A stretch of DNA of 64,000 nt from assembly GCA_963760795.1 (NCBI GenBank), contig CAVXEP010000032.1, positions 256,001-320,000 on the forward strand, in the 5' to 3' direction. The DNA comes from an uncultured delta proteobacterium (GTDB taxonomy: Bacteria > Desulfobacterota > Binatia > UBA9968). A program made the translations under genes and the position numbers. Below, in pieces: positions 3,016-23,802 of this stretch (the stretch's first letter is position 1; every line of letters starts with the position of its first letter). The notes below the pieces were generated by a model. It was not told where the DNA came from. It did no database searches and saw only the letters and a program-made list of their open reading frames with translations.

Positions 3016-5262
3016 TTGGCTTATCGCACCATTGGTAAAACATTACCCCGAGTCGAGGGGTACGGCAAAGTAACTGGGCAGACCAAGTACGCGGCGGATT
3101 TGCCGTTTGAAGGGCTGCTCTGGGCGAAGGTGTTGCGCGCTTCGGTGGCCCATGCGCGCATCGTCAAGGTCGATACTTCGAAGGCCAAGGCGTTGAAGGG
3201 CGTGCACGCGGTGCTTACCGGCGCGGACGTGCAAGACATCTTCGTCGGCACGCGGGTGAAAGACCAGCCGGTGTTGGCTTATGACAAGGTACGCATGGGC
3301 GGCGATGCGATCGCCGCGGTGGCGGCGGACAGCGAGGCGATTGCCGATGAGGCGATCGGTTTGATCGACGTTGACTATGAAGAGCTGCCTTACGTCGACG
3401 ATCCGGTGGAGGCGCTGAAGCCGAGCGCGCCGCTGATCCACGAGGATCGCAACAAATATAAAAACACGCCGAAGCTGCCGGAAGGGATGTCCGGCCATAA
3501 TCTGCAATCCTACGTGCGCTGGAAGAACGGCGATGTCGAGGCCGGCTTCGCTCAGGCGGCGCGGGTTTTCGAGCACACCTTTCGCACGCCGCTGTCGCAT
3601 CATGGCTACATCGAGCCGTGCGCCTGCACGGTGCAGGTTCACGCCAATGGTCAGGTTGAAGTCTGGGCGTCGAACAAGGGGCCTTGGGGCTTGCGCGAGC
3701 AGATGGCCGAAGACTTCGGCGTGCCGCAGGAGAAGATCAAAGTTCACATCGTCCACGTCGGCGGCGATTTCGGCGCCAAGGCGTCGTTGATCGACGTGCC
3801 GATCGCTTATTACTTAGCCAAAGCTGTCGGCGGCAGGCCGGTCAAGTTAGTGCTCGACTACAACGAGGAAATCTTGATCGGCGGCCATCGCCATCCGTCT
3901 GTAATCACGGTGAAGACCGGTGTCGCCGCGGATGGCACGCTGCTGGCGGTGAAAAGCGATATTTACTTCAGCGGCGGCGCTTACGGATCGCAGAAGGCCA
4001 ATCCGCAAGTCACCGTGCTTGGCGGGCGGCGTTTGGCGAGCATGTATCGCTGTCCGGCCATCGATGTGCAGACTTTCTGTTCGTACACCAATCAAGTGCC
4101 TTGCACCCAGACGCGCACGCCGGGGAGTCCGCAAGTCGTCTTCGCCTTCGAATCGCAGATGGACATTATCGCCAAGGAGATGGGCATCGATGCCCTGGAG
4201 CTGCGGCGCAAGAATATTTTGCACGACGGCGACGCCAATCCCATGGGCGAAAAGTGGAATCACATCCTCATGGGCGAAGTGCTGGAGCGCATCGTCAAAA
4301 CTTCCGGTTGGAAAAAAGGCGGCGCCAAGAAGAATCGCGGCTGGGGCATGGCGCTCTACGATCGCGGCACGCCGGAAGGCAAGGCGAGCTCGGCGTTGAC
4401 GCTTGAGGCCGACGGCCGAGTGAATATTCTCACCGGCGTGCCCGACGTCGGACCGGGCTATTACACCGTCAGCCAGCAGATGGTTTGCGAGGCGCTCGGC
4501 TTGCCACCGGAAAAAGTCGGCGTGGTTTTCAAAGACACCGACAGCTTGCCCTTCGATCCGGGCACGGGCGGCAGCAAGCAAACCAATACTTCCGGCCACG
4601 CGGTCAACCAGTCGGCGCAGGAAGTGCGCGCCAAGTTAGTCGCCCTGGCGGCGCGCGAGTTGGGTTGCCAGGCCGAGGAGATTCAGCAACAGGGCGGCAA
4701 ACTCACGGCGCCCAACAAGCAGTCGACGACCACCGAGAAGATGATCGCGCTCGCCGTCAAAGAAAATGGCGGCCCGGTATTTCATCTGACCAACTATGTG
4801 CCGAAGGATATGCCGAAAGTCACCGGCTTCGCCGCTCAAGTGGCCGAGGTTGAAGTCGATCCGACCACCGGCGGGGTCAAGGTTTTGAATCTAACCACGG
4901 CCCACGACACCGGCACGGTGCTCAATCATCTGACGCTCACAGGGCAGATCGAGGGCGGTATCGTTACCGGCTTTGGCTTCGCCTTGATGGAAGAGAATCC
5001 GCTGGTGGACGGCAAGATCGCGACCCTGAACCTGGGCGAAGCGAAACTGCCGTGCATCGCCGACGTGCCGCCGTTGAAGACGGTCCTGGTCGAAAGCCCG
5101 ACGGGGCCGACGCCCTATGGCGGCAAGGCCATCGCCGAGAATCCCAACGTGCCGACCGCGGCGGCGATCGCCAACGCTATCGCTGATGCCTGCGGCGTGC
5201 GACTGTTCGAGCTGCCGCTCAACGCCGAGAAAATTTACTGGGCGATGAATCGGAAGAGTTAG
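3016..5262 (+). CDS. Xanthine dehydrogenase family molybdopterin-binding large subunit
   Basis: TTG start after GGAGG; KVTGQTKYAAD, HGYIEP, GGDFGAK, AEVEVDPTTG, GQIEGG and KAIAE motifs; 748 aa. Confidence 0.93.
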   Translation: MAYRTIGKTLPRVEGYGKVTGQTKYAADLPFEGLLWAKVLRASVAHARIVKVDTSKAKALKGVHAVLTGADVQDIFVGTRVKDQPVLAYDKVRMGGDAIAAVAADSEAIADEAIGLIDVDYEELPYVDDPVEALKPSAPLIHEDRNKYKNTPKLPEGMSGHNLQSYVRWKNGDVEAGFAQAARVFEHTFRTPLSHHGYIEPCACTVQVHANGQVEVWASNKGPWGLREQMAEDFGVPQEKIKVHIVHVGGDFGAKASLIDVPIAYYLAKAVGGRPVKLVLDYNEEILIGGHRHPSVITVKTGVAADGTLLAVKSDIYFSGGAYGSQKANPQVTVLGGRRLASMYRCPAIDVQTFCSYTNQVPCTQTRTPGSPQVVFAFESQMDIIAKEMGIDALELRRKNILHDGDANPMGEKWNHILMGEVLERIVKTSGWKKGGAKKNRGWGMALYDRGTPEGKASSALTLEADGRVNILTGVPDVGPGYYTVSQQMVCEALGLPPEKVGVVFKDTDSLPFDPGTGGSKQTNTSGHAVNQSAQEVRAKLVALAARELGCQAEEIQQQGGKLTAPNKQSTTTEKMIALAVKENGGPVFHLTNYVPKDMPKVTGFAAQVAEVEVDPTTGGVKVLNLTTAHDTGTVLNHLTLTGQIEGGIVTGFGFALMEENPLVDGKIATLNLGEAKLPCIADVPPLKTVLVESPTGPTPYGGKAIAENPNVPTAAAIANAIADACGVRLFELPLNAEKIYWAMNRKS

Positions 5263-5390
5263 CCACAGCTTCGACTGTTTCAGGACGATCAGGAATTCAA
5301 AGGAATGCAGAAAAGAAATCGGAGGAATTGCCGCAATGGCGTTACAAAGTTGACGGGCTGCCCTGTCATCCCGAATGTGGGTTTATTTAT

Positions 5391-6560
5391 ATGAATAAGA
5401 TCGAATGGGCAAAAATCCTACTGGCGTTTTCGCTGTCGAGGCTGGTCCTGGCCATTGGCATAGCCTGGTTCATCATCGGAGAAATACGCCCGACTCTTGC
5501 CGCTGAATCAAAGTGGCAGGCCGAGTGGGATCGCACGGTGCGCGCTGCCGAGCAAGAGGGGCAGGTCAGCGTATCCATCGGCGGCTACGGCGCGCTTATC
5601 GAATTCGGCGCATTTCAGAAGGCCTATCCCAAGATCAAGGTCAATTACATCACCGGCGCGGGCACCGATATTACCCAGCGCATCGTTGCCGAGCGGCGGG
5701 CTGGCAAGTATCTGCTCGATGTCTACAACGGCGGCGGCGTCTCGCTCCACCAAACCCTCTACTTGGGCAAGATGCTCGAGCCGATCAAGCCGGCGTTGAT
5801 CCTCCCGGATGTCTTGGACCCCAGCAAGTGGTGGGAAGGCAAACATAAATACTCCGACAAAGAAGGCGAGTATGTTTTCGTCTACGAAGGCAATGTCTCG
5901 GCCGGCGCAGGCGCCGCCTTCAATACGCAGCTTCTCGATGCGCGCGAGTACAAGAGTTACTGGGATTTGTTCAATCCAAAGCTCAAGGGCAAGATCCTTT
6001 CCAGCGATATTCGCCGCGTGCGCGGCGCGGGAATTCCCTGGCAATTCCTCTACTATAGTCCTGAGATGGGGCCAAAGTTTTTGCGCCGCTTCTTCAGTGA
6101 AATGGACGTGACCATGAGCGCCGACATTCGTCAATCGGTGGATTGGTTGGGCACGGGTAAATATAGCCTGATCCTGCCGATCCAAGGTGGCCAGGTTCAT
6201 CGGGCCAAAAATCAAGGGCTGCCGGTGGAAGAATTCGAACCTTATCATTTCAAGGAAGGCGTAAACTTGTCCTCGGCTTTCGGCTCCCTGGCCCTGATGA
6301 ATCGCGCGCCCCATCCCAACGCGGCCAAGGTGTTCATCAATTGGCTGTTGTCACGCGAAGGCCAGACGCTGTTTCAGAAAATCATCAGCGTCCCCGGCGA
6401 CGCGCGCAATTCGCGGCGTATCGACGTGCCCAAGGATCATGTGCCGGCCAGCGAAACGCGCAGGGACAAGATGGCCTATTTCGATACCGACGATCCAGAT
6501 ACCAAGGATCTGGCGCCGCTCTACAAATTGCTTGACGAAGTCCTGCCGGCGAAAAAGTAG
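5391..6560 (+). CDS. Extracellular solute-binding protein (AfuA/SBP_bac_6-like)
   Basis: Signal peptide, AAEQEG, SYWDLFNPKLKGK and APHPNAAKVFINWLLSREGQ. Confidence 0.88.
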   Translation: MNKIEWAKILLAFSLSRLVLAIGIAWFIIGEIRPTLAAESKWQAEWDRTVRAAEQEGQVSVSIGGYGALIEFGAFQKAYPKIKVNYITGAGTDITQRIVAERRAGKYLLDVYNGGGVSLHQTLYLGKMLEPIKPALILPDVLDPSKWWEGKHKYSDKEGEYVFVYEGNVSAGAGAAFNTQLLDAREYKSYWDLFNPKLKGKILSSDIRRVRGAGIPWQFLYYSPEMGPKFLRRFFSEMDVTMSADIRQSVDWLGTGKYSLILPIQGGQVHRAKNQGLPVEEFEPYHFKEGVNLSSAFGSLALMNRAPHPNAAKVFINWLLSREGQTLFQKIISVPGDARNSRRIDVPKDHVPASETRRDKMAYFDTDDPDTKDLAPLYKLLDEVLPAKK

Positions 6561-15856: not shown

Positions 15857-15896
15857 TGGAGTGCTGGAGTAGAGGAGTGATGGAATGATGGGTATT
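15857..15896 (+). repeat. Octamer tandem repeat (TGGAGTRN)
   Basis: TGGAGTGC TGGAGTAG AGGAGTGA TGGAATGA TGGGTATT; the same family is at 61340-61371. Confidence 0.7.
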
Positions 15897-16889
15897 CGGA
15901 AAATACTGCAAGTTGGGATTTGCCTTATCGTCGTGGTTCTTTGCGGCGGGCTTGCGTCGGCGCAGGAGAAGAAGAACATCCGCATGGTGTTCGTCAGTCT
16001 GGCCTGGAATAGCGAGATTCCGTTCCGGGCGGCGTTGGCGCGCGGCTATTTCAAGCAGCAGGGGTTGCAGATCGAGCCGATCTTGATTGGCGGCGGTCCG
16101 GCGGCGATCGCGGCTTTGATCTCCGGCGAAGTGGACTTTGCCAGCATCGGCGGCGCGCAGGCGATATTTCGCGGCAAATCGCGCGGACTCGACTTGACGA
16201 TACTTGGCTGTATCTCGAGCACGACCAACTATATCCTGCTCGGCAATAAGCAGACGCGCACGGTGGAAGACTTGCGCGGCAAGCCGATCGGTGTCACCGG
16301 CGCGGGAACCTATTCGGAATTCGCAGTCAAGGCGTTTCTGCGCAAACACAATCTCAATCCCGATAAAGACGTGATCCTGCGCGCCATCGGCGGCACGGTG
16401 CTGCGCGCCGCGGCGATAGAAAAAGGCATGATCGCGGCGGCGCCGTTCTCCCCCGAAGACGGCGTGCGCTTGATGCGCGCCGGCTACTCGGTCATCAGCA
16501 ACATGAGTGAATCGCTGGGAATCCCGCAGAATATTCTCGTCACGCGCAACGAAGTGCTCGACAAATATCCCGAAACCAGCAAGCGCATGCTCAAGGCCTA
16601 CATCCAGGGCATGCAGTTGGCCAAGTTCAACAAGAAAGAAGCGCTCAAAGCCGGCTTCGATGCCGGTCTGAAGGGCGACCCGGACATCGTTAGCACGGCT
16701 TGGGATCTCTACTCGGGCGGGTTGCAAGGCGACTTGTCCGTGGCCGTGCCGGGTCTGCAACAAATGCTCGACGAAGATATTCGCGCCGGCCTGGTGGACA
16801 AAAACTTTACCCTGGACCGAGTGGTCAACGACCGTATTTTAAAAATCGCCCAGCAGGAGCTTCGCGCTGAAGGCAAACTGAGACAGTAA
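15885..16889 (+). CDS. NitT/TauT (NMT1/SsuA-like) ABC substrate-binding protein
   Basis: Signal peptide ending ASA-Q, GYFKQQGL, AALISGEVDF, EDLRGKPIGV and LNPDKDV. Confidence 0.9.
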   Translation: MMGIRKILQVGICLIVVVLCGGLASAQEKKNIRMVFVSLAWNSEIPFRAALARGYFKQQGLQIEPILIGGGPAAIAALISGEVDFASIGGAQAIFRGKSRGLDLTILGCISSTTNYILLGNKQTRTVEDLRGKPIGVTGAGTYSEFAVKAFLRKHNLNPDKDVILRAIGGTVLRAAAIEKGMIAAAPFSPEDGVRLMRAGYSVISNMSESLGIPQNILVTRNEVLDKYPETSKRMLKAYIQGMQLAKFNKKEALKAGFDAGLKGDPDIVSTAWDLYSGGLQGDLSVAVPGLQQMLDEDIRAGLVDKNFTLDRVVNDRILKIAQQELRAEGKLRQ

Positions 16890-16898
16890 GCGGCGGTC

Positions 16899-17900
16899 AT
16901 GATGCACAGAGCTTTGACGATTCGAGTCTTGCTAGCGCTCCTATCGGCCCTATCGGTCGGATCGCAGCTCTCGGCACAGGATAGGAAAGCTCTCCCGGTC
17001 GTCTTCACCGGCTTGGCATGGAACAGCGAGCTGCCGTTTCGGGTGGCGTTGGCGCGCGGCTATTTCAAAGCGCAAGGTCTCGAAATCCAGCCGATCTTCG
17101 TGCGTGGCGGGCCGATGGCATTGGCGGCATTGTCGTCGGGCGACGTGAACTTCGCCGAGATCGGCGGTGCGCAGGCCGTGATGCGCAGCCGGGCGCGTGG
17201 TCTAGAGGTGTCGATCATCGCTTCCATCGCCAACGCGACGACGTTTCAGTTGATCGGCGGCCGAGCCGCGCGCAGCCTCGAAGACTTGAAAGGGAAGATT
17301 ATCGGCGTCACCGGCGCGGGAGCGTTTTCCGACTTTGCCATGAGAACGTTTCTGCGCGTCAAGGGCATCGATCCCGACAAGGATGTGACGCTGCGCGCCG
17401 TCGGCGCCGGCAGTGGGCGCATTAGCGCTTTGGAAAAGGGCATCATTGCCGCGGCGCCATTTTCGCCGGAAGACACTGTAAGACTGCTGCGTCTCGGCTT
17501 TCCAATGATCGCCAACATGGGCGACAGTTTGAACATTCCGCAAAGTATCGTCGTCACGCGCAACGATGTGCTGGTGAAAACGCCGGATACCGCCAAGCGA
17601 TTTCTAAAAGCATTGCTGCTTGGCATGCAGCACGCCAAATCCAACAAAGCCGACGCGATCAAAGCGGGATACGAAGGCGGACTTCAAGGCGAGCCGGATA
17701 TCGTCAGCCAGGCATACGACCTTTTTGCGCCGGCCTTTTCCGCAGATCTTTCATTTAACCTTGCTGGTTTTCAGTTCATGCTCGATGAAGACAAGCGCGC
17801 CGGATTGATCGACGGCAAATTTATCCTCGAGCGCGTGCTCAACGATCGTATCTTAAGGACCGCTCAGCAGGAGCTGCGCGCAGAGGGGCGGCTCAAGTAA
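16899..17900 (+). CDS. NitT/TauT ABC substrate-binding protein (tandem paralog)
   Basis: Shares LAWNSE.PFR.ALARGYFK, AAPFSPED and AQQELRAEG with the upstream gene. Confidence 0.9.
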   Translation: MMHRALTIRVLLALLSALSVGSQLSAQDRKALPVVFTGLAWNSELPFRVALARGYFKAQGLEIQPIFVRGGPMALAALSSGDVNFAEIGGAQAVMRSRARGLEVSIIASIANATTFQLIGGRAARSLEDLKGKIIGVTGAGAFSDFAMRTFLRVKGIDPDKDVTLRAVGAGSGRISALEKGIIAAAPFSPEDTVRLLRLGFPMIANMGDSLNIPQSIVVTRNDVLVKTPDTAKRFLKALLLGMQHAKSNKADAIKAGYEGGLQGEPDIVSQAYDLFAPAFSADLSFNLAGFQFMLDEDKRAGLIDGKFILERVLNDRILRTAQQELRAEGRLK

Positions 17901-17903
17901 GCG

Positions 17904-18311
17904 GTGATGATGGATCCACATGTTTCGCTGCGTCAACTTTCCGCAACGCAAGCTGGCGCCATGGGTTTCTGGAATATTCGCTGGCAAGTCGAGAATCTTG
18001 GGGCGGAGGGTCTAAGAATTAATTCAGCGCGCTTGCCGCATGGGCAATTCAAATCGGATGAGCAGTCTTTTGCTCCGGGCCTCGATCTGGCACCGGGCGG
18101 GAGCGCACAGTTTCACAGCCTCGTGCAATGTCATGAGCCGGCGGGACTGGTTACGGAAAACGCTTTCGTCATTTTTCACTGCCAATGGCGCGGCGAAGCA
18201 TGGCGAATTTTCGTTCGTATTCGCGTCACTGTAACGGCTGACGGCGCGCCGGAAACGGCGGCTGAGCTGATCACCACACAGAAGGTTGGTTTTTCCGGAA
18301 TCTCGAATTGA
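17904..18311 (+). CDS. Hypothetical protein (about 134 aa, beta-rich)
   Basis: Tightly packed co-oriented ORF, 3 nt after the previous stop, with protein-like composition; no recognised domain. Confidence 0.7.
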   Translation: MMMDPHVSLRQLSATQAGAMGFWNIRWQVENLGAEGLRINSARLPHGQFKSDEQSFAPGLDLAPGGSAQFHSLVQCHEPAGLVTENAFVIFHCQWRGEAWRIFVRIRVTVTADGAPETAAELITTQKVGFSGISN

Positions 18312-18322
18312 GGTGCACCGAC

Positions 18323-18544
18323 ATGGCTAGCAAAGAAGAGGATCTGTACATTCTCAAGCGGATGCGCGGCTGACACAGCAATTGAGGCCTCGGCTTCGAA
18401 GAGACCACGGGTATGGTCTCCAACGCGGTGAAGCAGGATCAGAAGGAAGTTGTCGCGGCGCTCAAGCGGTTGCGCGCCCAGCACAGCGACGACGCGGAAT
18501 ACAAAAAGCTTAGGAAAGATCTGCCGAAGGAGTGGCCGTGCTGA
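18323..18544 (+). CDS. Unannotated 73-aa protein with two in-frame TGA codons (putative double selenoprotein, UxxxU)
   Basis: GAGGTG Shine-Dalgarno at 18310-18315, ATG at 18323. Reads MASKEEDLYILKRMRG-U-HSN-U-GLGFEETTGMVSNAVKQDQKEVVAALKRLRAQHSDDAEYKKLRKDLPKEWPC*. TGAs at 18371-18373 and 18383-18385. Confidence 0.7.
18401..18420 (+). promoter_or_regulatory. Candidate bacterial SECIS hairpin
   Basis: Perfect 7-bp stem GAGACCA/TGGTCTC with loop CGGGTA. The loop starts 22 nt after the second TGA and 34 nt after the first. Confidence 0.6.
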
Positions 18545-18600
18545 AAGCAGTTTCGGGTTACGGGTTTTCTGCCAGGGGCACAGAAGAGATTCGCAAGAAC

Positions 18601-18632
18601 CGTAGGATGGGTGGAGCGCAGCGATACCCATC
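18601..18632 (+). repeat. GTAG-family REP palindrome
   Basis: CGTAGGATGGGT-GGAGCGCAGCGAT-ACCCATC, between convergent genes. Confidence 0.8.
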
Positions 18633-18650
18633 GATCATATTCCGCGCAGG

Positions 18651-19406
18651 TTAGTCGGTCAATTTCACACGCGGTTGGCGAAGCTGTAGATCCTTAACCC
18701 CGCCCCAAAATTCACGTTTGCCGGTCATCGCCTGGACATGGCCGTCCCATTCGAGCGTGAAGGCGGTCAATCCCAACTTAACCGCCGCGCGAATTTTATT
18801 TTGCGTTACATCGTCGGTGGCAAGAAGGCGGATAGCGTCAATCTGTCGGCTGCCATGGCCTTCGTCCTGGGCCGCGTGAAGTTGATAGGTCGCCGCGGCC
18901 CGCGGCGAGAAGCCGTAGTGGCCGGTCAATTCGCGATAGACCTTCTCGGAGATTTTTCCCTCGCCGCCGAGTTGGCTTTCGACAAAGGCGAGCATGGCGA
19001 CGCCTTCGAGGGCGGAGCGGCGCTGGCAGCAGCCAACGATCATCTCGATCGCAGCCAAGGTGCCTGGCGCCGGTTCGGCATTGTCCGCCTGTTCGCGCGA
19101 AATGCCGCCTGCTTCGAGAAATTGCAGCATGATGTCGACGTGGGTACGCTTGCCGCCGAGTTCTTCCATGAAGTTTTCTAAGACCGTCGCCATCACGGTG
19201 TATTCCTTTGCCGACACCGCGTTGATCGCCATATGGCCGAAGAAGATCGGGTTGGTGCGCACCCGCAGATAGTGCTGCACTTCGCCGAGAATGATTTGTT
19301 CCTTGGTCCAACGGTGCTTGATGATGCCGTCGAACCAGGGATGTTGCTCCATTGGCACTTCCGCGGCGTAGCTCCACAGTTCATCGATAAATTCTTCTGG
19401 CTTCAT
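18651..19406 (-). CDS. Heme-oxygenase-like diiron protein (PqqC/CADD/TenA superfamily, iron-containing redox enzyme)
   Basis: HPWF, ENFMEE...H, AFVESQ and HAAQDEGH diiron-ligand pattern. The start could alternatively be 19436. Confidence 0.8.
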   Translation of the reverse strand: MKPEEFIDELWSYAAEVPMEQHPWFDGIIKHRWTKEQIILGEVQHYLRVRTNPIFFGHMAINAVSAKEYTVMATVLENFMEELGGKRTHVDIMLQFLEAGGISREQADNAEPAPGTLAAIEMIVGCCQRRSALEGVAMLAFVESQLGGEGKISEKVYRELTGHYGFSPRAAATYQLHAAQDEGHGSRQIDAIRLLATDDVTQNKIRAAVKLGLTAFTLEWDGHVQAMTGKREFWGGVKDLQLRQPRVKLTD

Positions 19407-19559
19407 GGCCAACCAAGTAGCGCAAGTGTTCGCCATTGTCCACCCCATGCTAGCCCTGATACCTGTGCCATGCCTTTGATATGGCTTGATTGCACCGACA
19501 CTTCGGCGCTAGATAGCTAAGGGAAACGATTCGGCCGATTGTGCGCTTGGGAGGGAATT

Positions 19560-20098: not shown

Positions 20099-20970
20099 AT
20101 GGAAACAATCAAAATTGGCATCGGTACTTCGAGCATCGGCCGGTTCCTGCCCTATGTGGCTGAGGCGGCCGGTTTGTTTGCCGAGCAAAATATCGCCGTT
20201 GAGATCGTCAACCAGCTCGACGAAGAGAAAGTTGTCGAGGACATCGTCTCGCAAACTATCCCCATCGGCACCCCCAACGCGCCGTCGCTGATTTTCTCCC
20301 AGCTCAACGGCAACGACCTGGTCATGATCGGCGGCCTGTTGAACCGTCCGGCATTTTATTTGGTGGCCAATCCGAAGATCGAATCGATCGCCAACCTGAA
20401 AGGCAAACGAGTCGGGATCAATCAACCCCGCCGGATGGCGGGCATGATGATGCTGGCGCTATTGCGGCGCTGGCAGTTCGATCGCGACAAGGATCTCGAA
20501 CTGGTCGATCTCGGCCTCAACGATCGCAGTTTCGAGGCGCTTCAGTAGCGGCGATCTCGACGCCGCGCTCTTGCCGCCGGAGAAAGCCTTCATGGCCGAG
20601 GCCGAATGGCTTGCGCATTGTCGCCGATACTCTCGCACTCGATAGCCAATGGGTGCCGCTGGCGACCACGCGGCGTTTTCTCGCCGGTAACCGCGACCTG
20701 GTTGGCAAGGTCGCGGCGATCTACCGCGACAGTGTCCAACTATTCAAGAACGATGCGCCATTGGCGCGCGCTACCATCGGGCGCCAACTGCCGGCTTTGC
20801 GCAACCAACCGCAGGTGCTCGACAAATGTTACCGCGTCTTCGCCGAGCTGTTTGAGCCGACGTTAATTGTCGCGCCGGCCGCGCTCACCGCCGTGCTTGC
20901 CGAAGTCGCCTTGCAGGATGCACGAGCCAGCCGCCTGGTGCCGGAGAATCTGATTGCTGAGCTGGGCTAG
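20099..20970 (+). CDS. NitT/TauT-type substrate-binding protein without signal peptide, two frameshifts (about 20546 and 20606)
   Basis: PYVAEAAGLF and ANLKGKRVGI; after +1 shifts it continues SGDLDAALLPPEKAFMAEAE / GLRIVAD into ORF 20611-20970. Confidence 0.75.
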
Positions 20971-22033: not shown

Positions 22034-23050
22034 ATGGATCGCTTCCGTTCGGTTCTTGTCTCAATGGTTTTCCTACTACTCACGGCGGCGCAGTTTTCGC
22101 TGGTGTCGGCGCAAACCAAGCTTACCATCGGCTATGCCGCCGTTAGTCCGCGTACCACTCCGCTATATCTCGCCCAGGAACAGGGTCTGTTCGCCAAGTA
22201 TGGTCTCGATCCGAAGATCGTACTGGTGCGCGCCGCGGCAACGCTTGTGGCGACTTTAGTTACCGGCGAAATGGACGTGGGCTACACCGGCGGCACTTCC
22301 GTATTGGGCGCGGCGGGGCAGGGATCGTATCTGAGAATTCTCTCGTCGATCTCCAGCACCCTGACCCATACCTTGGTCGCATACCCGAGCTTCAAGCGCG
22401 CAGAGGAGTTGCGCGGCAAACGCTTCGGCATCCAAAACCCCGGGGGCACCACCTGGATCAACACAATCTTGGCCTTGGAGCATGTCGGCCTAGATTACAA
22501 GAGGGACAACATCAATTTACTAGCGATCGGCGATTCGGTTTTGGTCGGACAGGCACTCGAAGCTGGTCGGGTAGACGCAGCGGTTCTCGACGGCGCATTG
22601 GTGCGCCGGTTGCGCAGCAAAGGATTCACCATCATCGCGGAGCTCCAGCCGGCGAAGATTCCCTTGCTCAGCCAAGCGATCGTTGTGTCACCGGAGTTCC
22701 TGCAAAAGCGCGCGGACATCGCTGAAAAACTCCTCATGACGCTGGTCGAGAGCCTGGCCTACAGCATGGCGCCGGCGAACAAAGCGGTGGTGATCAAAAC
22801 TATGATGCGCAAGTTTCAGATCGCTGATCCCGCGGTGGCGGAGGAGGGCTATCAAGATTATTTGAGCAGCGTCGAGCGCCGGCCGATTCCCATGGTGGAC
22901 GGGATGCACAACATTCGCCGCCTGCTAGCCACGCTCAATCCGAAAATTGCCAACGTCAAAGTCGAAGATCTGATCGATAGCCGCTTGATTCGCAAACTTG
23001 ATGACAACGGTTTCATCGATAAAATCGCCGCCAGTTACGGATTGAAATAG
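22034..23050 (+). CDS. NitT/TauT ABC substrate-binding protein
   Basis: AAGGAGG Shine-Dalgarno, signal peptide, GLFAKYGLD, ELRGKRFG and LDDNGFIDK. Confidence 0.9.
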   Translation: MDRFRSVLVSMVFLLLTAAQFSLVSAQTKLTIGYAAVSPRTTPLYLAQEQGLFAKYGLDPKIVLVRAAATLVATLVTGEMDVGYTGGTSVLGAAGQGSYLRILSSISSTLTHTLVAYPSFKRAEELRGKRFGIQNPGGTTWINTILALEHVGLDYKRDNINLLAIGDSVLVGQALEAGRVDAAVLDGALVRRLRSKGFTIIAELQPAKIPLLSQAIVVSPEFLQKRADIAEKLLMTLVESLAYSMAPANKAVVIKTMMRKFQIADPAVAEEGYQDYLSSVERRPIPMVDGMHNIRRLLATLNPKIANVKVEDLIDSRLIRKLDDNGFIDKIAASYGLK

Positions 23051-23130: not shown

Positions 23131-23802
23131 ATGGCAAAAAACTTTAGCGTCGAACTGCGGCAGCGCAGCGAGCGTATCTGGCGGGCAATTGACGGACATC
23201 CGTTTCTCTGTGAGTTGGCGGCGGGGAGTTTGCCGATGAATCGGTTTACCTACTTCATCTTGCAAGACTATGTTTACCTTCTCGACTTCGCTCAGGTGCT
23301 CTGCCTTGGCGGCGCCAAGGCGTCGAATTTGGAAATCTTAGAACTCTTTTGCCGTCACGCTTTAGGCGCGGTGGAGGTCGAGCGCAGCTTTCACGCGAGC
23401 TTCGGCAAAACGTTGAGGCTGTCGCGTAAACAGTTGGACGCCGTGCCCAAGGGACCGCGCACGCAGGCGTACATCGATCACTTACAGTCGGTGGCGCGCG
23501 GCGGCAGTCTGGGTGAGTTGGTGGCCGCGGTATTGCCTTGTTATTGGATCTACGGTGAAACCGGCAAGCGCTTATTCAAGAGCCGGCCCGCCAAGCCGAA
23601 AATCTATCGCCAGTGGATCGAGACCTACGCGTCTGAGGCTTTTTGGCAACCGGTGCGCGAGCAGATTCGCCTGATGGATCGGCTCGCCGCGATGGCGAGC
23701 CCGGCTGAGAAAAAACGCATGGTCGAGTTGTTCATTCTCAGCAGTCGCTATGAACTATTGTTTTGGGAACAGGCCTATCGGTTGGAGAGCTGGCCGATTT
23801 GA
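23131..23802 (+). CDS. tenA: Thiaminase II / TenA
   Basis: HPF, YFILQDYVYL, catalytic LPCYWIY, WIETY and SSRYELLFWEQAY. Confidence 0.9.
   Translation: MAKNFSVELRQRSERIWRAIDGHPFLCELAAGSLPMNRFTYFILQDYVYLLDFAQVLCLGGAKASNLEILELFCRHALGAVEVERSFHASFGKTLRLSRKQLDAVPKGPRTQAYIDHLQSVARGGSLGELVAAVLPCYWIYGETGKRLFKSRPAKPKIYRQWIETYASEAFWQPVREQIRLMDRLAAMASPAEKKRMVELFILSSRYELLFWEQAYRLESWPI

Follow-up and report, generated by a model that had tools for sequence, protein, structure and literature searches.

A bacterial selenoprotein with selenocysteine (Sec)/Cys pairs among its homologs and a Sec insertion sequence (SECIS) in frame is a known kind of gene product. Families with two Sec residues close together are also on record. 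The family table of a 2026 review (PMC13188914) contains a metal-binding UxxU family (NF041115), the FmdB family TIGR02605 with the same spacing, and TsoB (NF045694) with UxxxxU, and a UxxxU family was not found in this table as searched. According to the model of the bacterial SECIS (bSECIS) in Fig. 2 of that review, the element possesses a loop of 3 to 9 nucleotides (nt) with a G in the first two loop positions on a stem of 4 to 16 base pairs (bp), and it should be positioned 16 to 37 nt from the UGA, with −7.5 kcal/mol or lower (PMC13188914). The deep-Sep study (PMC12013277) presents nine new families, which are single-Sec families from Desulfobacterota isolates, and the SAO system, with which Haft and Gwadz (2022) are concerned, is unrelated. 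The locus compared here is part of the contig CAVXEP010000032.1 of an uncultured delta proteobacterium (GCA_963760795.1). A stretch of 64,000 nt of this contig was analyzed, which is called the window, and all coordinates are those of the whole window. Positions 18323 to 18544 (+) of the window are a real, overlooked gene for a small two-Sec protein of 73 codons plus stop, and the unusual feature of this gene is the presence of two UGA codons 12 nt apart, together with a compound hairpin signal.

Positions 17800 to 18800 were inspected directly, and 18323 to 18544 were translated with TGA as U. The product reads MASKEEDLYILKRMRG-U-HSN-U-GLGFEETTGMVSN...KEWPC, with the first Sec codon (residue 17) at 18371 to 18373 and the second one (residue 21) at 18383 to 18385, both on the plus strand, and the terminal TGA of the 73-codon frame at 18542 to 18544 (+). 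An initial annotation made from the letters alone had proposed this single frame with its two internal TGA codons, a Shine-Dalgarno-like GAGGTG 7 nt before the ATG at 18323, and an open antisense frame. All three were borne out: the GAGGTG was read directly at 18310 to 18315 (+), and the list of open reading frames (ORFs) made with translation table 11 contained at this place only a 43-amino acid (aa) ORF starting from the ATG at 18413 and the 151-aa antisense ORF at 18176 to 18631.

Conservation of the two in-frame TGA codons

A six-frame search of 61 related genomes, which represent three families of one order and include the genome of the window itself, revealed full-length copies at 49 places in 48 of these genomes, each with exactly two in-frame TGA codons and with identities among the copies down to 43%. 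Two unpublished genomes, G004 and G035, are part of the counts for the 61 genomes and of the 102 sequences tallied below, and they contribute rows L018 and L024 to alignment A2. Without them, the gene is present in 46 of 59 genomes, and the conclusions are independent of both. G004 possesses two full copies, each with its own gene for the beta-sandwich protein described below. Two further copies deviate: L097, on the same contig as G020:C559, is a partial copy from one further genome that contains an in-frame TAG and runs off the contig end, and L123 has a C terminus that departs from the others past residue 62, perhaps through a frameshift.

A species-level scan with one genome per species, covering 185,579 species, yielded 233 candidate stretches, 216 of which encode a relative, and the best 80 were kept. 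The record titles of the matches name Binatia, “delta proteobacterium,” Syntrophobacter(aceae), Thermodesulfobacteriota, Chloroflexota/Limnocylindria, Verrucomicrobiia, Acidobacteria, and Eisenbacteria, plus one metagenome-assembled genome (MAG) each of Nocardioidaceae and Bathyarchaeia; such MAG labels may be unreliable. A “phylum” sample of 301 genomes for the Bathyarchaeia-titled bin (G061, locus L128) gave nine matches, all of them two-TGA forms, and this bin does not behave as archaeal.

Pooling of all loci and removal of duplicates resulted in 102 distinct full-length sequences. TGA was found at the first position in 100 of them, with TGT or TGC in the other two, and at the second position in 101, with TGT in the remaining one. 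The pairs were 100 TGA/TGA, one TGT/TGT (L103, from a Chloroflexota MAG), and one TGC/TGA (L117). All TGA/TGA sequences but L130, which has a shorter N terminus, are in register (99 of 100). Homologs keep TGA or Cys at both positions, which the initial annotation had named as support, and the replacement residue is Cys rather than Trp, Arg, or Gly. While the in-frame UGA codons are conserved, the true stop of the same set varies (TAG 41, TGA 40, and TAA 20). The recurrence of the same ORF with both TGA codons across relatives is far beyond chance.

The coding signal was followed on both sides of the TGA codons. In 40 sequences, the positional entropy was 0.82/0.60/1.37 for the three positions of codons 2 to 16 and 0.86/0.46/1.29 for those of codons 37 to 73. 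This variation by codon position on both TGA flanks indicates one reading frame throughout, with a protein-coding signature, and this shared periodicity makes it untenable to regard the locus as a pseudogene, as two separate ORFs, or as a pure RNA element. Conservation upstream of the Met of MVSN, for which the initial annotation had asked, is thus present as coding-type third-position variation in codons 2 to 16 of the same frame. The conserved block as a non-coding structured RNA with an incidental open frame would agree with about 40 nt that are almost invariant at the nucleotide level. This explanation has a negligible probability, however, since no Rfam family matched at E up to 1, the sequence outside the 40-nt block shows clear periodicity at third positions together with conserved amino acids, and protein-level homologs reach archaea-labeled records.

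A profile of 25 sequences was searched against 1.84 billion representative proteins at E ≤ 0.001 and gave 124 matches, 86 of which are exactly 43 aa long and start at profile position 31 (Met31). These entries are the stub that gene callers make from the Sec forms, a systematic mis-call. C-x3-C at the Sec columns was found in 22 of the 27 other matches fetched, in continuous proteins of 60 to 133 aa that are annotated in their sources as “hypothetical protein” only. Labeled Cys forms come from Chloroflexota and from MAGs of Heimdall-, Hod-, and Marsarchaeota, Sulfolobaceae, and Thermoplasmata. In the joint 33-row alignment A3, the columns C17, C21, F25, T28, M31, R64, P68, and P72 are invariant. 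Each of the 16 Cys forms that A3 contains from the databases has Cys in the column of residue 17, and the column of residue 21 is likewise Cys in the Cys forms. With conserved flanks on either side, Sec and Cys interchange at both positions.

Taken at face value, the 43-aa entries would mean that both UGA codons are ordinary stops, that the real gene is the 43-aa ORF from the ATG at 18413, and that the region upstream is a 16-codon leader or is untranslated. This ATG exists, and 86 of the 124 database matches are calls from this Met, but such a gene structure is very improbable. Codons 2 to 16 and 18 to 30 are conserved as protein in the same frame, and residues 22 to 30 (GLGFEETTG), upstream of that Met, are nearly invariant. 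Homologs with Cys at both TGA columns are encoded by the continuous ORFs of 60 to 133 aa. The ATG is buried inside hairpin B (see below) without a Shine-Dalgarno sequence, as the initial annotation had stated and direct reading showed, and all three stop codons occur at the true end of the gene, whereas an internal stop is always TGA.

RNA-library contigs from two rhizosphere runs overlap positions 18265 to 18433 at about 90% likeness, and none of the 40 differences listed is on either TGA. They give a hint only of transcription, with DNA carry-over being possible.

Hairpins A and B and the selenocysteine machinery

The stretch from the second UGA (UGA2) to codon 34 is almost invariant at the nucleotide level. 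Two tandem hairpins appear here in the minimum free energy (MFE) fold of 18365 to 18448 and also in the consensus fold of 89 sequences. Hairpin A (18383 to 18398, +), which was absent from the initial annotation, contains UGA2. Its 5-bp core, in which 18383 to 18387 pair with 18394 to 18398, extends to up to 7 bp in the window, its variable loop has 4 to 6 nt, and it reaches −8.2 kcal/mol alone. All 89 of the 89 sequences preserve the core pairs, and the changes seen there are limited to one-sided ones of the GU/AU and GC/GU kinds. Hairpin B (18401 to 18420, +; GAGACCA-CGGGUA-UGGUCUC) has a 7-bp stem and −9.2 kcal/mol, and 99.8% of its cells are paired in the 89 sequences. It is the perfect stem GAGACCA/TGGTCTC with the loop CGGGTA, 15 nt past the second TGA and with loop distances of 22 and 34 nt from the two UGA codons, that had been described before, and it is likely the SelB-binding SECIS.

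Compared with the published criteria (PMC13188914), hairpin B is within the bSECIS constraints for both UGA codons (6-nt loop, 7 bp, and 22/34 nt). Hairpin A is not a bSECIS for the first UGA (UGA1): its loop starts 15 nt downstream of UGA1, reads CUCG in the window, with neither of its initial two bases being G, and is variable elsewhere. The earlier proposal that one hairpin may serve both codons agrees with the fit of hairpin B to the model for both, and it is to be amended in that two tandem hairpins are present and not one.

Over both hairpins, 97.4% of the cells are paired in the 89 sequences versus 27 to 56% with the partners slid. Compensatory changes, which had been named as possible support, are missing because the stems are simply invariant, and the structure rests on this invariance and on one-sided, pairing-preserving changes in 30 cells (GU/AU in 17, AU/GU in 11, and GC/GU in 2). 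The conservation of the hairpin extends down to the synonymous sites. In 99 Sec forms, the third-position entropy is 0.00 at the stem codons 22, 24, 27, 28, and 32 and at the loop-G codon 29, and 0.14 at codon 25. It is 0.78 to 1.18 in the loop of hairpin A (codon 23), in the linker between A and B, at position 5 of loop B, and just after B, with a mean of 1.48 in the flanks. All 99 of the 99 Sec forms share the synonymous sites of the hairpin B stem and the G at position 2 of its loop, whereas position 5 of the loop is variable. Synonymous sites that are frozen in the stems and free in the loops are better support for the hairpins than covariation.

Both UGA codons, at codons 17 and 21, would be decoded as Sec by the SelB/tRNA-Sec system of the cell. 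We infer that hairpin B is the SelB site for both of them, with its loop at 22 and 34 nt being within the known working range. Hairpin A may be a conserved helper, which in its folded state would shorten the path from UGA1 to hairpin B. A ribosome four codons further on would melt hairpin A, hairpin B would then be positioned 15 nt from UGA2, and one SelB-binding hairpin could serve both codons in this way. Alternatively, the double UGA may be chiefly a selenium-sensing gate on the C-terminal domain or on downstream translation, with the chemistry of the residues being secondary. Two UGA codons four codons apart would make the dependence on the Sec-tRNA supply steep, and hairpin A buries UGA2. 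Both columns are nevertheless the most conserved ones of the family, including the Cys forms that need no gate, and the gene that comes after the ORF is convergent, which leaves no co-directional gene behind it, so a gate of this kind has only a small chance of being the main function.

The Sec machinery, which the initial annotation had suggested to look for, is present. The genome of the window, which is 89% complete, encodes tRNA-Sec (76.7 bits; called SeC with the anticodon tca by ARAGORN), SelB (410 bits), SelA (612 bits), and SelD (379 bits), all over the curated cut-offs, and its selD itself contains an in-frame TGA. A selB gene over the cut-off was detected in 54 of the 61 relatives; among the 48 with the gene for the small protein, the number is 43. 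The genome of the Cys/Cys copy L103 gave no selB over the cut-off (best, 187 bits), which fits a switch from Sec to Cys after loss of the machinery.

The UGA codons may be read through without Sec, by near-cognate or suppressor decoding as Trp, Cys, or Gly, in which case the hairpins would stimulate read-through only. In favor of this, selenium in the product is a prediction, and selB was not found in 5 of the 48 gene-bearing MAGs or in the MAG G063. This explanation is very unlikely all the same. The replacement in homologs is always Cys, which is the hallmark of Sec/Cys pairs, the Sec machinery is complete, and hairpin B fits the SECIS model. The genomes without a detected selB are incomplete MAGs, and 40 of 101 copies themselves have TGA as the terminal stop.

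Two other genes of the same genome contain in-frame TGA codons, and their hairpins were read by eye and from single-sequence folds only. In both, the Sec codon has a G+C-rich hairpin with a GGU or GGG loop 12 nt downstream. In selD (G000:C11:1948-2862, L051), the Sec codon has the context G-U-A-A-K. A second in-frame TGA is located nine codons upstream, and the sole in-frame ATG, GTG, or TTG precedes that TGA, which makes the start, or a second recoded UGA, ambiguous. The first hairpin at the selD Sec codon starts from the G of the UGA and is followed by GGUC-CGGGC-GACC. This proximal hairpin starting inside the UGA plus a distal one with a G-rich loop is parallel to the arrangement of hairpins A and B. 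The gene for the alpha subunit of formate dehydrogenase (fdhA, G000:C10:54434, L149/L150) contains a TGA in ENQARI-U-HSS, and 12 nt downstream of this Sec codon is a 6-bp G+C-rich hairpin, GUCCCC-GGUCU-GGGGAC, which resembles a textbook SECIS.

Predicted product and neighboring genes

The AlphaFold2 model made from the 33-row alignment contains four helices (residues 4 to 21, 25 to 35, 40 to 54, and 58 to 65; mean predicted local distance difference test [pLDDT] value of 86.7). The two Sec residues, spaced as i and i+4, are both in the final turn of helix 1. The product would accordingly have a four-helix, helix-turn-helix (HTH)-like topology in which a single turn separates the members of the Sec pair where helix 1 ends, and U/C-x3-U/C would be the invariant site of the family. 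A fold search of the PDB with the small protein gave no match at E ≤ 0.001. The weak PDB neighbors of the model are the HTH domains of NarL, DosR, and MntR, with template modeling (TM) scores of about 0.5, and the structure neighbors of a natural Cys form in the ESM Atlas are GerE, HTH_23, and Sigma70_r4, with TM scores of 0.55 to 0.65. As far as these models reach, the fold searches in both collections support no functional assignment. The fold suggests a redox-sensing DNA-binding regulator as the main alternative function, which is improbable. Neither Pfam nor NCBIfam release 20 (June 2026) contains a family that matches the protein of the window at E up to 10, and ten Cys forms gave noise only in both databases.

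The gene directly upstream (17904 to 18311, +) is an ORF for a 135-aa protein, ending in a stop that overlaps the selenoprotein gene's ribosome-binding site. In a survey of the gene context of 97 distinct loci, in which ORFs were chosen greedily, all 94 of the 94 loci for which 450 nt or more of upstream sequence were available had a gene for about 140 aa on the same strand that ended 10 to 40 nt before the Sec gene. The family was found in 48 of the 48 related genomes bearing the Sec gene. The protein has no match in Pfam or NCBIfam. Its AlphaFold2 model, with a pLDDT of 95.2, is an all-beta, eight-stranded sandwich. PDB matches are generic Ig-like folds only with TM scores of ≤0.47 (for instance, TRAP-beta, ApaG, and Asf1), and the ESM Atlas contains this beta sandwich in unnamed clusters only.

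The convergent gene downstream (18651 to 19448, −), with its true start probably at Met15 (position 19406), encodes a protein related to heme-oxygenase-like dimetal oxidases (HDOs). It matches PF14518 at 3e-17 (63.4 bits versus a cut-off of 28.9) and PF03070 at 1e-7. Of the 87 loci whose sequence extends far enough downstream, 71 have a convergent gene for about 255 aa there, and in 15 further loci, the ORF choice took the presumed antisense shadow of such a gene. Among the 48 related genomes bearing the Sec gene, 47 have the oxidase gene next to it. The nearest solved structure is that of CADD from Chlamydia (1rcw/8va9; E 3e-14), and the E/H/E/H-D-H ligand positions, in the motifs E..H, E, and D..H, are aligned with those of 1rcw. 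PF14518 and the ligand motifs together place the partner oxidase in the HDO superfamily. Its score for TIGR04305 is 57, with a cut-off of 200. Tyr27 of CADD is a sacrificial substrate, and the exchange Y27F abolishes formation of para-aminobenzoate (pABA), as stated in PMC9522330. The oxidase of the window contains Phe at this position, which is invariant in 29 of 29 homologs (F25 in alignment A5). Due to this Phe and the TIGR04305 score below the cut-off, a function of the partner as a CADD-type self-sacrificing pABA synthase was rejected. Tyr60 of the small protein is near-invariant. It was considered as a substrate supplied in trans to the oxidase, which is not claimed.

All three genes are present in 47 of the 61 relatives, none in 10, and a mixed set in 4, with the mixed cases being contig ends or broken copies. 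The genomes with none of the three include three at 98 to 99% completeness, one of them a single contig, from a genus otherwise with the genes. The Sec gene, the beta-sandwich gene, and the oxidase gene come and go together, which is a pattern and not a statistic because the relatives are not independent.

Eight archaeal-type metagenome loci with the Thermoplasmata-type Cys form were fetched. In all 6 of the 6 loci with at least 350 nt downstream, the gene immediately behind the Cys form, on the same strand, encodes a TENA/PqqC plus PF14518 protein, and in L142 it overlaps the Cys-form gene by 4 nt. This oxidase carries an N-terminal C2H2 zinc finger. Its family has 823 database members at E ≤ 1e-10, with the same architecture in 120 of the 120 listed. 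It was recognized only via Pfam and profile comparison, by which it is homologous to the bacterial oxidase (hhalign, 93%; E 2.6e-7); hmmsearch with the beta-sandwich alignment A4 and phmmer with the oxidase of the window gave no match in the archaeal-type loci at E up to 1. The pairing of a U/C-x3-U/C protein with an HDO-type oxidase is thus conserved across very distant lineages. A complex prediction for the archaeal-type Cys form with its oxidase scored 0.00 (mark, 0.32), and the controls were not folded, so that this value bears neither way on binding. After the oxidase gene of L142, at 5126 to 5431, is a gene of the Ta0938 family (PF11494, 1.6e-28) with weaker matches to the metal-binding domains TRASH and YHS, below the Pfam cut-offs, which may be a further hint of metal handling in the archaeal module.

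The small protein may work in a module with the upstream beta-sandwich protein and the CADD-like dimetal oxidase. For its role in this module, an accessory function for the oxidase, as a redox partner (diselenol/diselenide) or as a metal-handling partner, is possible with slightly less than even chances. What the data show is a real gene with interchange of Sec and Cys at both positions, conservation of the two hairpins, a genome equipped with the Sec machinery, and co-occurrence of the three genes. The explanation as a whole, with UGA17 and UGA21 read as Sec, hairpin B as the signal, hairpin A as its helper, and the protein as part of a module with the beta-sandwich protein and the oxidase, is regarded as probable with good confidence.

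A number of observations weigh against this explanation. Sec insertion at residues 17 and 21 is predicted from the sequence, and transcription is hinted at by contigs of relatives that are about 90% alike. Compensatory double changes were found in 0 of the 14 pairs of hairpins A and B in the 89 sequences, so that covariation does not add to the evidence, and the conserved peptide GFEETTGMVSN also imposes part of the invariance of the hairpins. Most of hairpin B is retained in the Cys/Cys copy L103, which has the beta-sandwich gene but a different gene downstream. No selB over the cut-off was found in five of the 48 gene-bearing relatives, which are 60 to 92% complete, or in G063, a 2.7-Mb MAG with the Cys/TGA form, for which the missing selB may be due to incompleteness or be unexplained. 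The fold matches are weak, with none from the PDB at E ≤ 0.001, and the oxidase gene of the bacteria is convergent and not co-transcribed with the Sec gene. The helper role of hairpin A is a hypothesis, and so is the function proposed for the protein.

Further neighbors were noted in the window. A canonical gene of the TenA family (PF03070, 3e-46) is at 23131 to 23799 (+), and four ORFs for NMT1/THI5-like substrate-binding proteins, one of them a 149-aa fragment, are at 15885 to 16889, 16899 to 17900, 20099 to 20548, and 22034 to 23050. In 33 of the 97 loci, the beta-sandwich gene has an NMT1-like gene ahead of it. The TenA and NMT1-like neighbors could point to pyrimidine/thiamine-type or sulfonate-type substrates. 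Between the convergent selenoprotein and oxidase genes, at 18602 to 18632, is a 31-nt palindromic element with the arms GGATGGGT and ACCCATC. Its depth in a soil-metagenome run was about 1478 versus about 9 in the flanks, with loose ends on both sides, and its 28-nt core has three exact copies in the same genome and one in the window. This indicates an interspersed repeat, similar to repetitive extragenic palindromic (REP) elements, that is common to many organisms.

Comparison with known systems

The family is undescribed as far as the literature searched, Pfam, and NCBIfam release 20 go, which agrees with the initial annotation, where the family had not been recognized; supplements could list it. 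In a literature search with supplementary tables outside its range, no paper was found joining selenoproteins with Binatia or with UxxxU, and none joining selenocysteine with heme-oxygenase-like diiron enzymes. The gene adds a selenoprotein family that annotation has missed, with no Pfam or NCBIfam model for the Sec or the Cys form, and flags the use of selenium in Binatia-like soil lineages. Two UGA codons 12 nt apart with one model-conforming hairpin and a second one that is conserved as well are a natural test bed for the distance limits of the SECIS in bacteria. The physiological partners of the HDO superfamily are largely uncharted, and the association with an oxidase in bacteria and with the Cys forms of archaeal-type contigs points to an accessory function, such as the delivery of electrons, metal, or substrate. 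If this is true, it would be the first link between selenocysteine and the heme-oxygenase-like dimetal oxidases, in a family widespread in Binatia-like and Chloroflexota-like soil bacteria, with Cys forms labeled archaeal. The full combination, an undescribed two-Sec family as a dedicated HDO partner plus a compound signal with a meltable hairpin that decodes two UGA codons, is a tentative proposal and rather doubtful.

The protein of the window resembles NF041115, TIGR02605, and NF045694 in being small or modular, in its short two-Sec motif, and in having Cys homologs and UGA-truncated database entries. It is not related to them in sequence, as judged by hmmscan with the Cys-substituted protein and ten Cys forms, and its spacing is x3, on one face of a helix, instead of UxxU or UxxxxU. 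GerE/LuxR-type HTH domains with three or four helices have a similar helix topology, but there is no match to these sequence families, and none of those domains contains C-x3-C; TM scores of about 0.5 to 0.65 mean little for a helical protein of 73 residues. Compared to the consensus bSECIS (bSECISearch model, type of Escherichia coli fdhF), hairpin B is likewise a stem-loop in the coding region 3′ of a UGA. The locus differs from this consensus in that one hairpin apparently serves two UGA codons 12 nt apart and that a second conserved hairpin ahead of it, which holds UGA2, is off-model. The partner oxidase, in turn, is similar to CADD/CT610, the 4-aminobenzoate synthase of Chlamydia from the HDO superfamily, in fold family and ligand motifs, and CADD is its nearest characterized relative, with Tyr27 at the position where the partner possesses Phe.

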